Virus record (IMG/VR): IMGVR_UViG_3300011581_000001
Location: 344 to 64,343 of that record
Reading direction: 5' to 3' (one strand)
Length of the DNA stretch: 64,000 nucleotides
DNA from: a virus
Shown here: positions 9,966 through 13,920 of the stretch, one piece after another
Layout: each line of letters begins with the position of its first letter
Position numbering within the stretch: position 1 is the first letter of the stretch
Notes under the pieces: model-generated
Seen by the model: the letters and a program-made list of their open reading frames with translations, nothing else
What the model was told of the DNA's origin: nothing
Databases searched by the model: none
Made by a program: the position numbers and the translations under genes

Positions 9966-10204
9966 AACGCTAAACGCGCATTAGCGCCAAAAGACCGCCG
10001 GGCATTGCGCCTAGCGGTCGTTTTTTTTAATTTATAGTCGATAACATCAACGATATACATATGCTCGCTGACCAAGAATATCGCCTTCGTTATCGTGTAT
10101 TCACGCCCGTTAATCGTGCGGACATTGCCGGATACGTGCGCACGAATTTCATCCGTTTCAATTACCGCGATAGGCTTGCCCTTATATACGTATTGATGCT
10201 TCAT
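9773..10204 (-). CDS. Small hypothetical protein coupled to the ATPase gene (3' end uncertain)
   Basis: ATG overlaps the ATPase stop (TAATG); the first ~57 aa (MKHQYVYKGKPIAVIE...) look protein-like, then the frame runs through the terminator into the amidase antisense. Confidence 0.45.
   Translation of the reverse strand: MKHQYVYKGKPIAVIETDEIRAHVSGNVRTINGREYTITKAIFLVSEHMYIVDVIDYKLKKTTARRNARRSFGANARLAFYFNFRFTYASAYDTSSPSSYLSTFSCFDVNVPSVTARLIISRAACRPVSFNFISSSSFGSTFV
9989..10028. terminator. Bidirectional intrinsic terminator
   Basis: AAAAGACCGCCGGGC-loop-GCCTAGCGGTCG-T8 between convergent operons. Confidence 0.85.
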
Positions 10205-12660
10205 TATAGCGCCATCCTTTGCAATTCGCTCCACGATCGTCCATACATGCGAGCGTGCCGTAACGTTAAGAACGAGTTGTCGAAGCGCTCGGATTCGGGC
10301 ACAGGCGGTAGCATATGGACTAAGAACGCGTTAAGCGGCTCATTCGTATTAAGTATAGCAATTGCGTAGTGTTTTGGCGTGCGTAAAGCGTCCTCAACGG
10401 TAAATGTCGGCTCTAAGCGCTCCTTCGCAAGCTCGAACGTTTTCTTATGATCGTTGGCGAACAGGAACTGATTAACGCCACCAGCGATAAGATTATCCTG
10501 TAGATACGACGGCAATTTGCCCCAGTGATGGAACGCAAATATCGAGCCTAATCGTTCTTTGCGCCCTTCCGTCGCAATACGTCCCATTAACTTCGCCAAG
10601 CCTTCGCTTTCGACTTGCTCCGGTTCATTAAATATCATAAAGCATCCGTGCGCATCCTTATCGTCTTGCTCCATTAGCATACGCGTCATAAGCACTTTTA
10701 GCGTTATCCAATGCGCTAAAACTTTCGCAGCATTGCCGAGCTTACGTTTAGGTATGCGGATGATGACCGTCTTGCCCTCTTTCATCCACTGCTCGAAATC
10801 GACTTCGGCTTTCGGAGGTTGCGAGAATATATCGTATAACGTATCGTCGCCAAAGAACATATTTAAGCGGTTGATAATTGCGTCGCATTTATTGCCGAGT
10901 TCGTCGTTCGTTCCCCAGTTAATTAAATCGTTGGCCAGGCGGATATTACCGTCTTTCATAAGCTGCTCAATGCGGTCTGCACGGAAGTTTTCGTCCTCGA
11001 TAATCCGTTTAATATTAAATAGCGAGCCGTTCGAAGCCTTCGACGCTTCCGTTAAATATTTCTGCGAGCGTGCTAATCCGTCTAATTGCATGAAATCGAT
11101 CATTTCAAGCGCAAATCGTGAACCGCCTTTGCGACCTAGCTTTCCGATAACTTCCGTTAAATCCATCGGCACAACAAAGTCCTCGTTCGCTAAATCAATA
11201 TCTATTATCCGGTCAGCCGGCAATAAGTCCCGGATACCGTCCGCCATGCCCCGATGCCCCGGCTCGCCAATCCAGTCGATAACAAACGTTGAGATACCGA
11301 TTTCAGACGCCTTATAAACGAAGTTCTGTATCGCCGTATCTTTACCGCTACCTTGCTTTCCGATAAACGTATAGCCGCTATAAAAGTTATCCTTTTGATG
11401 CGCAGGCAATCCGACTGGAATCTTGCTGTCTTTCATTTCGGAATAGCCGATAAGTAGATTCTTCTCGCTTTGCAATACCGACGGCACTTCGGCTTCGACG
11501 CGAGATTTAACGTCCAATGCCTCCGCATATTTCCGTTGCAGTTCTTTATTCGGCATCATTAACGCCAGTTTCGACATTTCATCGGTACTTACGAGATTGA
11601 CGTTTGGATCATTGCGCGTAATTGTCGTCAGTTTTAACGTATTTAACTCACCGATAACCCTTTCGCGTTTCTTTTTAGACGTAACTTTAACGCCATGCAA
11701 CTCGTTCGTCTCCGTCAAATCTTGCATACTTAGCGCTAATGCTTCCGCCATTGTATCGCGAGTCAAGCAGTCCTCGGAGTGCGAAGCAATGCGTATATGA
11801 GAACGGAATACCGGAAGATTACCTTTTTCGTGATTAAGTCGCGTCGTGCCGACTTCGTCCGCTAAGCTATACGCCTTACTTACAATGTCATTGTTTTCGT
11901 ATTTACGTTCGCTCTTAAAGAACGAATTGCTGAACGCTTGGAAAACGTCGGTTACTAAGCTATTTATTTCGTTGACGACGAACGCTACAAATACTTTTAT
12001 ATAGTTCGTAATTAGCCGACCATTTACCGTTGCTCGCTGCGGAACTTTACCGTTACGCAATTTCTCATACGCCCATTGCGCCGACTTTATCCATTTATTA
12101 CGATTCTCTGCTTCGTTACATATCGATAAGCGAGCGATATCTCCGTCGTATTGCAACTCGTCAACGACGCTAAGAACGTTCGCTATCGGCGTTTTCACAT
12201 CGCTACTATTCGAATTTAACGTAAAGATATCGTGCTTTAAATAGCGGAGCTCCTGGACGATTGTATTATCCGCCGGAATCTGCAAGTCGTCGATAGTTGC
12301 GTCCTTAAACGTCACACTCATTTTGTTCTCGATTTTCCGCTTCAATTTATCCGCTTGATAATTGGAAGTGGCTACGTAAAACTCAACGGACTTTTTGCCG
12401 TCCTTTTGACGGAATACAACGTCGAACCAAAAGAAGTCTTTCTCGCGAAAAGTAAAGCGGAAGCCATTGCGCTCTAGCCGACTGAATGGGCGCTCATACA
12501 TTTCGTACATTTTATAAATCGCGCGCCATAACCGCTTATTGTTATTCGTCACATCTGCGTGAGGAATGATTCGGAATACTTTCATATCGTTGCGCTTAAC
12601 TTCGAAAAACTTGCGACCGACTTTCGTATAGCCTTCCGGCAATTCGTCGGGCGTAAACAT
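10204..12660 (-). CDS. VirB4/VirD4/HerA-like P-loop ATPase
   Basis: 818 aa; Walker A-like GKQGSGKD, Walker B-like MIFNEPEQ, EGRK.RL motif typical of coupling-protein-like ATPases. Confidence 0.8.
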   Translation of the reverse strand: MFTPDELPEGYTKVGRKFFEVKRNDMKVFRIIPHADVTNNNKRLWRAIYKMYEMYERPFSRLERNGFRFTFREKDFFWFDVVFRQKDGKKSVEFYVATSNYQADKLKRKIENKMSVTFKDATIDDLQIPADNTIVQELRYLKHDIFTLNSNSSDVKTPIANVLSVVDELQYDGDIARLSICNEAENRNKWIKSAQWAYEKLRNGKVPQRATVNGRLITNYIKVFVAFVVNEINSLVTDVFQAFSNSFFKSERKYENNDIVSKAYSLADEVGTTRLNHEKGNLPVFRSHIRIASHSEDCLTRDTMAEALALSMQDLTETNELHGVKVTSKKKRERVIGELNTLKLTTITRNDPNVNLVSTDEMSKLALMMPNKELQRKYAEALDVKSRVEAEVPSVLQSEKNLLIGYSEMKDSKIPVGLPAHQKDNFYSGYTFIGKQGSGKDTAIQNFVYKASEIGISTFVIDWIGEPGHRGMADGIRDLLPADRIIDIDLANEDFVVPMDLTEVIGKLGRKGGSRFALEMIDFMQLDGLARSQKYLTEASKASNGSLFNIKRIIEDENFRADRIEQLMKDGNIRLANDLINWGTNDELGNKCDAIINRLNMFFGDDTLYDIFSQPPKAEVDFEQWMKEGKTVIIRIPKRKLGNAAKVLAHWITLKVLMTRMLMEQDDKDAHGCFMIFNEPEQVESEGLAKLMGRIATEGRKERLGSIFAFHHWGKLPSYLQDNLIAGGVNQFLFANDHKKTFELAKERLEPTFTVEDALRTPKHYAIAILNTNEPLNAFLVHMLPPVPESERFDNSFLTLRHARMYGRSWSELQRMAL

Positions 12661-13010
12661 TAGCTCGCTCCTCCTACGATCATTGCGCCGGCGATTCCGA
12701 CAGCCGAGAATATTCCGAGCGGTTTAAGAAGGCTACGCGCAACCATTGGTGTAAACATCATGTAGCCTCCGCAACCTATCGCAGCGTATCCGACTAAATC
12801 GGGCGTTACACTGACGAACCAATCCCACGCTAATAGGCCCCAATCGACTAATGACGCTTTTATATCGACCCAAACTTCACTCCAAAACTCCTGGTCGATT
12901 GCTCTCGCTTCGGATTCGATATATTGATCCGTCTTATTCAGTCCTCTTTCAATCCAATAAAACGGGTTTAACTTTTCGATAGGAATGTAAATATATTCTT
13001 TCTCCGTCAT
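12660..13010 (-). CDS. Small membrane protein of the ATPase operon
   Basis: Two C-terminal hydrophobic segments; stop overlaps the ATPase start; GGAGG RBS. Confidence 0.75.
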   Translation of the reverse strand: MTEKEYIYIPIEKLNPFYWIERGLNKTDQYIESEARAIDQEFWSEVWVDIKASLVDWGLLAWDWFVSVTPDLVGYAAIGCGGYMMFTPMVARSLLKPLGIFSAVGIAGAMIVGGAS

Positions 13011-13025
13011 TTTAGTATCCCTCCA

Positions 13026-13409
13026 TCATCCGATTGATTTTAAATAATCACGAATATCGATAGCATGGCGAGCCAGTAAGTAACCGCAACAAACGCCAAT
13101 TAAGAGCTCAATCGCTTTCGAGCGGTGTCCTAACGCCCATGAAGCGCCAGCAAAGATAATGATAAGCACTACGGCTCCGTCAAATATCGCCATAACAGTT
13201 CCGTGAATATCTCCGAAAGTATCTGCAAATGCGATAGTTGGCGTTAATATCATCGGAACGGCGAAACTAAGCACTTTCGAAAAAGTCGTCGTTTCTTTTT
13301 TGCGTTTCATTTCCGATAGGACTTCCGGAAATACTTCCGTTTCTTTGCGTTGATTTCGCGTCACTCTTAACGTAGAATAACCGTCTTTTAACTCGTTAAT
13401 AAAATCCAT
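13026..13409 (-). CDS. VirB2/TrbC pilin-like membrane protein
   Basis: Start MDFINE at 13409 with GAGGAG RBS; basic region, hydrophobic stretch ending AFA|D (signal-peptidase-like), then two TM helices. Confidence 0.65.
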   Translation of the reverse strand: MDFINELKDGYSTLRVTRNQRKETEVFPEVLSEMKRKKETTTFSKVLSFAVPMILTPTIAFADTFGDIHGTVMAIFDGAVVLIIIFAGASWALGHRSKAIELLIGVCCGYLLARHAIDIRDYLKSIG

Positions 13410-13422
13410 TTTATCGCTCCTC

Positions 13423-13452: not shown

Positions 13453-13481
13453 ACGGAAAACAACCGAAAGGATTGATAAAC

Positions 13482-13550
13482 GTGGTATTTGTAATCGGAT
13501 TAGGCATCGGAATTGTTGCCGGCGTTATCGTTAATACGTTTGTCGCTTAA
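13482..13550 (+). CDS. 22-aa hydrophobic peptide MVFVIGLGIGIVAGVIVNTFVA (not in ORF track)
   Basis: GTG start 9 nt after GAAAGGA RBS (13466-13472), directly downstream of the sigmaF-type promoter; one TM helix with GxxxG motifs. Confidence 0.65.
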   Translation: MVFVIGLGIGIVAGVIVNTFVA

Positions 13551-13772
13551 TTGTCGTTTTAATTGCTCTAAGCGTGATTCGGGTTGGGGAGTTGGAGTGG
13601 TATTTTTACGCACTTTCGACGGAATTTCGATTCCTTTCGCTTTCATATCGGCAAGAATTAATTGCTTGACGTAACCGCTAAAATTACGCCTTTTCACGAA
13701 ATCTAAAATCGCCTGGTCGACCGAATTGTTCGTATTAAACGAGACTGATCGGGGAAACTTATTCTTAGACAA
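13500..13772 (-). CDS. Ribbon-helix-helix-like DNA-binding protein, first gene of the ATPase operon
   Basis: RSVSFN...D..ILDFV..RNFSGYVKQLI..D pattern; GGAGGTG RBS with TTG start. Confidence 0.7.
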   Translation of the reverse strand: MSKNKFPRSVSFNTNNSVDQAILDFVKRRNFSGYVKQLILADMKAKGIEIPSKVRKNTTPTPQPESRLEQLKRQLSDKRINDNAGNNSDA

Positions 13773-13891
13773 ATAAACACCTCCGCATAATTAATAGTAT
13801 TACCGCTATTACCGTTTTATGCGAAAAATTTGTCGGAATTTCTTCCGACGTAGACAGAAAAGCTAATAGCGCTTTGCTTGCTATATAGCTT

Positions 13892-13920
13892 AGCATATGC
13901 GTGATACATTCAAAATGTGA
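13892..13920 (-). promoter_or_regulatory. sigmaE/sigmaK-type (mother-cell) promoter for the RHH-pilin-ATPase operon
   Basis: Minus strand TCACATT-N14-CATATGCT(A); fits sigmaE (TCATATT-N14-CATACAHT-like) and sigmaK (AC-N~17-CATAnnnTA). Confidence 0.65.

Follow-up and report, generated by a model that had tools for sequence, protein, structure and literature searches.

An SPP1 gene 31-32-type module with an opposite-strand peptide gene and candidate two-compartment, sporulation-linked control in a 64-kb viral element

The DNA analysed here is a stretch of 64,000 nucleotides (nt) from a virus (the window; positions 344 to 64,343 of IMG/VR record IMGVR_UViG_3300011581_000001), which covers nearly all of a record of 64,343 bases that is rated complete. 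At positions 10204-13920 it carries a cassette of four co-directional open reading frames (ORFs) on the minus strand. These encode proteins of 90, 145, 116 and 818 amino acids (aa), run counter to most of the genome and adjoin the lysis genes. By sequence similarity and gene order the cassette is the gene 31/31.1/31.2/32 module of the virulent Bacillus phage SPP1, which is known but functionally unexplained. Between the first two genes the opposite strand encodes a very short hydrophobic peptide behind a promoter-like sequence of forespore type, and a sequence resembling a mother-cell promoter precedes the operon. The best reading of this arrangement is a two-compartment, sporulation-linked control of the module.

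The first gene (13500-13772) encodes a gp31-like small protein of 90 aa that is presumed to be a DNA-binding regulator. It is followed by a gene for a gp31.1-like, VirB2/TrbC-like membrane protein (13026-13463; 145 aa as listed), a gene for a gp31.2-like membrane protein of 116 aa with two helices (12660-13010) and the gene for an 818-aa ATPase homologous to SPP1 gp32 (10204-12660), the start of which overlaps the stop of the 116-aa gene (ATGA). An initial annotation, made from the sequence alone, had proposed a minus-strand operon of four genes bounded by terminators, and this holds: the ORFs are as described, and hairpins with T runs lie at either end. The upstream hairpin (13925-13963) has T runs on both strands and marks the end of the upstream par-operon gene, while the GC-rich downstream hairpin (9993-10028) is common to the cassette and the convergent amidase gene. 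A further minus-strand ORF (9773-10205) begins with an ATG that overlaps the ATPase stop (TAATG), stays open for 143 codons through this terminator hairpin and runs antisense into the amidase gene. It is protein-like only in its first ~60 residues and has no homologue in the related loci.

All four genes were recovered by tblastn, in the same order, in SPP1, in Geobacillus phage GBK2 (genes 29-32) and in nearly all of 25 IMG/VR loci; the protein identity with SPP1 ranges from 34 to 60%, and the PHROGs of the module are 17574, 5422, 20592 and 5156. According to the sections of Godinho et al. (2018; PMC6316719) that deal with these SPP1 genes, gp31.1 and gp31.2 have transmembrane segments, HHpred shows a likeness of gp32 to TrwB, VirB4 and FtsK, lytic growth can do without gp31.2 and gp32, and a trans-membrane translocon has been proposed. 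The initial annotation knew of no characterised system with the logic that it proposed; the cassette itself has a precedent, as the translocon proposal and the dispensability of the module in SPP1 had already been published. The window copy differs from that of SPP1 in its setting, a 64-kb element that also has genes for plasmid partition and replication, and in its position beside the lysis genes.

The ATPase is 60.3% identical to the product of SPP1 gene 32 and 64.5% identical to GBK2_32 over 97-98% of its length, and 58-67% identical to proteins of Bacillus cereus-group plasmids (tblastn). It falls into phrog_5156 with an expectation value (E) of 1.7e-252. No Pfam family matched it, and a profile of the ATPase found no match among all chains of the PDB at E <= 1. 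A fold search with its AlphaFold2 (AF2) model, which has a predicted local distance difference test (pLDDT) score of 71.6, ranked TrwK/VirB4 of R388 first (8rtd_O; E 2.5e-15, ~900 aligned columns spanning the full length, template modelling (TM) score 0.32), followed by HerA and TrwB. Judged by this model the protein has a VirB4 fold, and the earlier description of a VirB4/VirD4-like ATPase is borne out, with TrwB as a secondary likeness. Against CedD of NCBIfam, a DNA-translocating ATPase, it scored E 2.2e-5 and 23 bits versus a cut-off of 600. At a Desulfotomaculum locus (L089; G002:C66:89064-91453) the ATPase homologue is divided between two adjacent frames of 633 and 189 aa.

The 145-aa protein shares 48% identity with the product of SPP1 gene 31.1 (tblastn, E 6e-30). 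Its match to the TrbC/VirB2 family PF04956 (E 0.012, 16 bits) is below the cut-off of 27.9, and the match is likewise sub-threshold in 13 of 16 relatives (best E 1e-4). The VirB2-like label given by the initial annotation is thus retained with a reservation, in that the match recurs among relatives and always stays below the Pfam threshold. In an alignment, the pilin-like proteins show a leader-like segment followed by two hydrophobic helices. The true start of the gene is most likely the ATG at 13409 and not the listed TTG at 13463, because GAGGAG lies 7 nt upstream of the former and the alignment places it in agreement with the starts of the relatives. Starting there leaves a 90-nt spacer that holds the peptide promoter.

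The 116-aa protein is 34% identical to the product of SPP1 gene 31.2 (tblastn, E 8e-8; phrog_20592), with two C-terminal hydrophobic helices and a conserved LPD..GY motif in an alignment of 17 sequences, all 17 of which are without a Pfam family. Other parts of a conjugation apparatus had been reported as unrecognisable, in keeping with which the three families sought, TrbL/VirB6 (PF04610), VirB8 (PF04335) and relaxase PF03432, were without a match at E <= 1 over all 64,343 bases of the record; the search did not extend to the coupling protein or to further relaxase families. In Alicyclobacillus phage MMB025 (L034, 1629-2276) and in one other case a metallo-endopeptidase (M23 peptidase) is encoded between the membrane proteins and the ATPase; the window copy is without this wall-cutting enzyme.

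The product of the first gene is 46% identical to that of SPP1 gene 31 (tblastn), belongs to phrog_17574 and shares an invariant NFSGYVK motif with its aligned family. Its model has a beta-alpha-alpha order followed by a long helix. The initial annotation had labelled it a ribbon-helix-helix (RHH) protein, a label that is unconfirmed: none of 18 relatives matches the RHH families of Pfam, Foldseek returned nothing for the model at E <= 0.001, and the best VIA match (Z 3.2) is not an RHH. The only pointers to such a fold are the order of elements in the model and the 'Arc/Mnt/CopG' labels of two depositors.

The peptide gene of the window lies on the plus strand at 13482-13550 and comprises 22 codons from a GTG start to a TAA end (VVFVIGLGIGIVAGVIVNTFVA). 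A ribosome-binding site (RBS; GAAAGGA, 13466-13472) stands 9 nt 5' of the GTG, all 22 residues are hydrophobic or small, and the gene shares 51 nt with the end of the gp31-like gene. Wherever a related locus has kept the 31/31.1 spacer, it has an opposite-strand ORF of 17-27 codons with a GGAG-type RBS, encoding a wholly hydrophobic peptide with small-xxx-small spacing and usually Val/Ala-Asn near its end. A filter-based survey, in which the GGAG-type RBS was itself a selection criterion, found such an ORF in 53 of 65 loci (30 distinct sequences). Among the 12 misses, L014, L023 and L058 begin within the pilin-like gene or shortly ahead of it; L015 and L040, which share a contig, do have the peptide, the charged tail of which failed the filter; and L034, L035, L057, L062, L064 and L069 gave no tblastn match to the pilin-like gene, the peptide being found in L034 and L035 on separate inspection. 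The remaining miss is L061. The ORF is present at 14 of 21 named genome loci, and four of the seven without it (L086-L088 and L090) match only in part, with no cassette in the sequence upstream. It also accompanies diverged ATPases, namely those of Alicyclobacillus phage MMB025 (31% identical) and of a Clostridium botulinum plasmid (23% identical).

The substitution pattern is that of a coding sequence. Among 16 ORFs of 22 codons the variable sites number 11, 9 and 20 by codon position. Codon differences in the peptide frame are 664 synonymous versus 496 non-synonymous, three other frames give 50-176 versus more than 1000, and the complementary frame that shares third positions is broken by stop codons. 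Because the excess of third-position and synonymous changes is confined to its own frame, the ORF is, on this comparative evidence, translated and under selection. The plus-strand RBS and 22-aa transmembrane peptide that had been predicted are therefore supported by conservation as well as by the coding signature. None of eight records (SPP1, GBK2, pCT83, pBMB26, MMB025, pRSJ21_3, 000TH010 and 0105phi7-2) annotates the gene. In SPP1 it corresponds to an opposite-strand ORF of 17 codons; the relevant part of the SPP1 paper examined heavy-strand ORFs, treats the 31/31.1 spacer as non-coding and does not mention an opposite-strand peptide (PMC6316719). The distant cassettes of SP-10 and LysYB1 have a different hydrophobic opposite-strand ORF of 21 codons. 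In SP-10 (L033, 313-1180) the cassette follows directly after genes annotated as 'sigma factor accessory' and 'sigma factor', and the 21-codon ORF lies in the gap.

Upstream of the peptide gene, on the same strand, stands a forespore-type promoter sequence, GTATA-N15-GGCTAAACTA (13423-13452; GTATA 13423-13427, -10 element 13443-13452). The published Bacillus subtilis consensus sequences are GTATA / GGNAANAMTR for sigmaF and GNATA / CAWAMTA for sigmaG (PMC3416734, Table 4, citing Wang 2006 and Eichenberger 2004), and the window sequence has one mismatch to each. The pattern GTATA-N14-16-GGNNANANTA occurs once in the 64-kb window, where 0.14 matches are expected, and at least one match was found in 11 of 100 shuffles. 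The consensus sigmaF promoter of the initial annotation is accordingly upheld in its uniqueness and conservation, and its assignment is widened to sigmaF or sigmaG, each at one mismatch. Across 33 distinct loci the same -35 and -10 blocks recur in the same place, with the -10 element ending 28-40 nt before the peptide start and with unrelated spacer letters. Exact sigmaG matches were found in pCT83, L015 and L053 and exact sigmaF matches in L005 and L022, and further exact matches to one or the other in genome loci of Psychrobacillus, Anaerobacillus, Neobacillus and a Bacillus species. Elements of forespore type precede the peptide in the Alicyclobacillus phage and the Clostridium plasmid as well.

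Enrichment was measured against all 100-nt windows of the same 29 loci (n = 11,672). With up to one mismatch, sigmaG-type sites precede the peptide in 12 of 29 loci versus 111 of the background windows, and sigmaF-type sites in seven of 29 versus 22. Sites for sigmaB at up to two mismatches (2/29 versus 213/11,672) and for sigmaA at the same tolerance (2/29 versus 241/11,672) are not enriched. Inspection by eye of the 31/31.1 spacer in the window, SPP1 and GBK2 found no TTGACA-like -35 element at 16-18 nt that would indicate a sense-strand sigmaA promoter.

The leader of the operon contains a mother-cell-type promoter sequence, P1 (TCACA-N15-GCATATGCTA), on the minus strand at 13891-13920 (TCACA 13916-13920, -10 element 13891-13900). 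It matches the published sigmaK consensus KCACM / GCATANNNTA without a mismatch, and its gap of 15 falls on the optimum of 15 +/- 1 given for sigmaK in the legend to Figure 4 of Eichenberger et al. (2004; PMC517825). Read as a sigmaE type (TCACATTT-N12-GCATATGCTA), it has two mismatches to the consensus TYATATTT-N12-KCATANANTN. In a comparison of 41 distinct 260-nt regions 5' of gene 31 homologues with 11,632 background windows, sigmaK-type sites with up to one mismatch occurred in six regions versus 44 windows and those with up to two in 21 versus 877. Sites of sigmaA type with up to two mismatches are not enriched 5' of the operon (1/41 versus 712/11,632). Two positions are conserved, one 101-152 nt 5' of the first gene and a second at 23-32 nt, and each sigmaK-type site listed at either of them has a gap of 15. 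The loci with such sites include those of SPP1, GBK2, Psychrobacillus, Paenibacillus, Paenisporosarcina and Neobacillus. The sigmaE/sigmaK-like promoter proposed earlier thus has a perfect sigmaK match in the window and recurs in about half of 41 diverged relatives. The search of ATPase homologues for co-conservation that had been suggested along with it found both promoter types and the antisense peptide kept far beyond the window.

Several further elements crowd the leader. An imperfect palindrome (AAGCTAATAGC..GCTATATAGCTT, 13860-13891) covers the P1 -10 element and start, a hairpin (GTCGGAA..TTCCGAC, 13822-13849) followed by a T run forms a terminator-like structure between P1 and the first gene on the minus strand, and a tandem TATTACCG repeat (13798-13814) lies just 5' of the gp31-like RBS. 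TAATAGC is common to the tandem repeat and the palindrome arms. A palindrome occupies the P1-equivalent place in SPP1, GBK2, L009, L010, L013, L022, L070, L071 and L082, where the arms vary by locus and complementarity is kept, and its half-site recurs as a tandem repeat just 5' of the first gene in the window and L009. The repeat of the window sits inside a weak second promoter-like site, and relatives have GCATN-N15-TCATATCGTA-type sites at this position. The palindrome and the tandem repeat are candidate operators, the first and a possible second, of the module's own regulator. In SPP1 the sigmaK-type site (GCATA-N15-GCATAAGCTA) shares the 30.1-31 stretch with a palindrome and a predicted terminator, which corresponds in place to the window hairpin and which Table 2 of PMC6316719 puts at 24,095-24,136. 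A search of 13300-14050 against Rfam gave chance-level rows only (E 1.3-9.7, far under the gathering scores).

The element does not supply an evident sigma factor of its own. Sigma70_r2 of Pfam has no match in the window, and no full phage sigma factor was found that would explain the promoters. An ORF at 27784-28296 (+) that the initial annotation had called sigma-like has no Pfam match. It is possible that a very divergent phage sigma factor reads the promoters. A 114-aa ORF elsewhere (50309-50653, +) matches Sigma70 region 4 (34 bits) without region 2. Spo0A boxes number six in the window against 12 expected, with none in the control regions.

The distribution of the module fits a sporulation-linked role, as nearly all the elements that carry the family are those of endospore formers. 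Phage records with a homologue are named, in 107 of 108 cases, for Bacillus, Geobacillus, Lysinibacillus, Alicyclobacillus, Brevibacillus or Terrisporobacter phages or a deep-sea thermophilic phage; the remaining record is a partial match named for Microcystis. The 48 plasmids with a homologue come from Clostridium, Bacillus, Alicyclobacillus, Thermoactinomyces and Laceyella, and all 21 genome loci belong to spore-forming genera or to Bacillota metagenome-assembled genomes. Of 401 genomes sampled evenly from one class, 16 gave a match, and every one of these carries SpoIVA, versus 272 of the 401 overall (hypergeometric p = 0.0017). The virulent phages SPP1 and GBK2 carry the module, peptide and promoter, as do chromosomal contigs of 0.3-6.5 Mb, and several relatives are B. 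cereus-group plasmids with ParM. In plasmid pCT83 of B. thuringiensis CT-43 (L031, 838-1029) a gene for a Spo0E-family aspartyl-phosphate phosphatase, a modulator of sporulation initiation, lies ~1.6 kb 5' of the cassette, which is followed downstream by a ParM gene; no near-identical IMG/VR locus was found for this plasmid copy.

The window itself encodes tail, holin and amidase genes together with a ParM/Alp7A-like protein and a Rep-like helix-turn-helix (HTH) protein. The actin-like ParM (Pfam ALP_N, E 1e-20) and the Rep-like protein adjoin the cassette. The sole integrase-family gene of the record encodes a tyrosine recombinase of 195 aa (53399-53986, -), which could serve as the dimer-resolution enzyme of a plasmid prophage. 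It is plausible that the element is a phage-plasmid, because ParM- and Rep-like genes stand beside phage genes and the only tyrosine recombinase is short.

Two-compartment, sporulation-linked control is the best reading of the module because both promoter types and the peptide are conserved, sigmaA-type sites are not enriched and the family is restricted to endospore formers. The fuller proposal, that control of the module is tied to both cells of a sporulating host and that its purpose is the persistence of the phage through spores, is given about an even chance. From the sequence we infer what the module does, which sigma factors read it and that the opposing transcript has an antisense effect. 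The VirB2-like protein, the two-helix membrane protein and the VirB4-type ATPase would form a minimal membrane translocon. In the mother cell, P1, with its sigmaK consensus close to sigmaE, would drive the operon under autoregulation by a palindrome-binding regulator. In the forespore, the sigmaF/sigmaG-type promoter would fire in the opposite direction and yield a membrane peptide of ~21 residues. The same plus-strand transcript, predicted at ~480 nt, would cross the first gene and both operon promoters, end at the two-way terminator at 13925-13963 and shut the operon off by collision and antisense pairing. Action at the membranes between mother cell and forespore may then cause the phage genome to end up, or stay quiet, in the spore. 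Spore-borne persistence is the most economical function, since lytic phages become trapped in spores and the module is dispensable for lytic growth; such trapping of lytic Bacillus phages, including phi29 and SPO1, as 'virospores' is described in PMC12991052.

A number of points weigh against this proposal. Because a terminator-like hairpin follows P1, transcription from this promoter alone may give no more than a short RNA or be attenuated. The consensus strings are information-poor, and the repeated GCATA words could be operator half-sites instead of -35 and -10 elements. The loci are kin, so that the enrichment and binomial figures overstate independence. Loci of the B. cereus group are without the sigmaK-type site, and the chromosomal and IMG/VR copies of that group, like SPP1, combine an exact CATACTA -10 element with a poor -35 element. 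At the thresholds applied, the distant cassettes of SPO1, SP-10 and LysYB1 show no sporulation-type promoters. Phage host range within the Bacillota could by itself account for the restriction to spore formers. Finally, the SPP1 genes 31-32 have been assigned to the early sigmaA unit PE5, in an account of these genes that does not mention sporulation (PMC6316719).

These points are shared in part by the strongest alternative, in which the module is an ordinary early vegetative membrane module for superinfection exclusion, DNA entry or membrane remodelling, read from upstream sigmaA promoters. The sporulation-like motifs would then be operators of its own regulator, and the peptide would be a small regulatory or type-I-toxin-like product unrelated to sporulation. 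Membership of PE5 and the dispensability of gp31.2 and gp32 in SPP1 speak for this alternative, as do the missing sigmaK-type site in the B. cereus group and the overlap of the palindrome and tandem repeats with both promoter-like sites. The peptide mRNA would also be complementary to the operon mRNA over its whole length, an arrangement known from type I toxin-antitoxin pairs. On the other side, the terminator between 30.1 and 31 of SPP1 makes read-through from PE5 an assumption, and sigmaA-type promoters are enriched neither before the operon nor before the peptide. The peptide must have a promoter of some kind, and the only conserved elements before it fit sigmaF/sigmaG in spacing and distance, even in the Clostridium plasmid, and the near-restriction of the family to spore formers is left unexplained. 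On balance a vegetative module is judged unlikely, if still a possibility of some substance.

A more specific form of the sporulation-linked proposal is that the module is a spore-entry machine. Its translocon would move the phage genome or a silencing protein across the engulfment membranes, the peptide would dock with or gate it from the forespore side, and the peptide transcript would keep the operon off in the forespore. This form is doubtful. Mobile elements are known to use sporulation-specific control, for example in the mother-cell-specific excision of SPbeta as presented in PMC4191935. The known mechanisms that this literature cites are Spo0A boxes and borrowed chromosome-segregation functions; in contrast to that known route, Spo0A boxes are not enriched in the window. 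In the literature searched, no paper connects genes 31-32 with spores, or the forespore with either this module or a phage gene of VirB4 type, and a 2026 paper on SPP1 cell biology (PMC13212656) has no occurrence of gp31, gp32, VirB4 or 'sporulat'.

The initial annotation had proposed that a phage-plasmid copy in the mother cell pumps the element into an element-free forespore or kills it, with the forespore peptide as exclusion signal or antidote. The two promoter types do fit the compartments that this model requires, the window does look like a phage-plasmid (ParM, a Rep-like HTH protein and only a short tyrosine recombinase), and several relatives are plasmids with ParM. Nevertheless, a logic of plasmid rescue or policing is unlikely to be general: the virulent phages SPP1 and GBK2 have the same module, peptide and promoter, and so do chromosomal contigs of up to 6.5 Mb, and in neither setting does the loss of a plasmid at septation arise. 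Moreover, sigmaK is active late, after engulfment. The model is consequently considered very improbable.

Least probable of all, and hardly to be expected, is a role in conjugation-type secretion, with the cassette as a remnant or minimal version of such a system that would carry the element or a protein from cell to cell independently of sporulation: the VirB4 fold with its secondary TrwB and HerA similarity, the sub-threshold TrbC/VirB2-like protein and the weak CedD similarity (E 2.2e-5, far under the cut-off) point that way, but the complete record has no match to TrbL/VirB6, VirB8 or relaxase PF03432 (other relaxase families not searched), PLSDB types 41 of the 48 carrier plasmids as non-mobilizable, and the virulent phages that carry the module have no use for conjugation.

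The module can be compared with several known systems. It resembles the core of type IV secretion (VirB2, VirB3 and VirB4; TrwL, TrwM and TrwK of R388) in the full-length alignment of its ATPase with TrwK/VirB4 and in a like gene order, from pilin-like protein to small membrane protein to ATPase with a stop/start overlap. It differs from this core in that VirB6, VirB8 and relaxase (PF03432) matches are absent and the ATPase has no sequence match to solved chains; a VirB3-like role of the 116-aa protein is unsupported. The Ced system of Crenarchaeota moves DNA across a membrane with small pilin-like membrane proteins and a VirB4/HerA-type ATPase, without the rest of a conjugation system. However, the similarity of the window ATPase is far below the CedD cut-off (23 bits versus 600), and Ced is archaeal and cellular, with no link to sporulation. 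In B. subtilis, SpoIIIA-SpoIIQ is a secretion-like channel built from a mother-cell operon and a forespore-made membrane partner, and it offers the same two-compartment logic. This likeness is one of logic; the SpoIIIA ATPase is of a different family, and the forespore partner here would have only ~21 residues. Type I toxins and small regulatory membrane peptides include Ibs/Sib, KdpF and AcrZ. The window peptide is likewise very short, wholly hydrophobic and antisense to another transcript, but no dedicated small antisense RNA was identified here (no Rfam match), its partner is the operon mRNA and its promoter is of forespore type.

SPP1 is among the best-studied Bacillus phages, and its genes 31-32 have since 1997 been described only as a 'putative translocon, non-essential'. 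The opposite-strand micro-gene, the two compartment-type promoters and the sporulating hosts now give this module a concrete hypothesis. As SPP1 carries a sigmaK-type site, a palindrome, a predicted terminator and the 17-codon ORF, the hypothesis is testable in a model phage. The peptide gene also illustrates how very small genes on the 'wrong' strand escape annotation. If the spore-entry machine were real, it would explain the survival of virulent phages such as SPP1 as 'virospores', and no secretion-type machine of a virus would earlier have been shown to act between the two compartments of a single bacterial cell in differentiation. More broadly, the hypothesis bears on how strictly lytic phages and phage-plasmids pass through the dormancy of their hosts.

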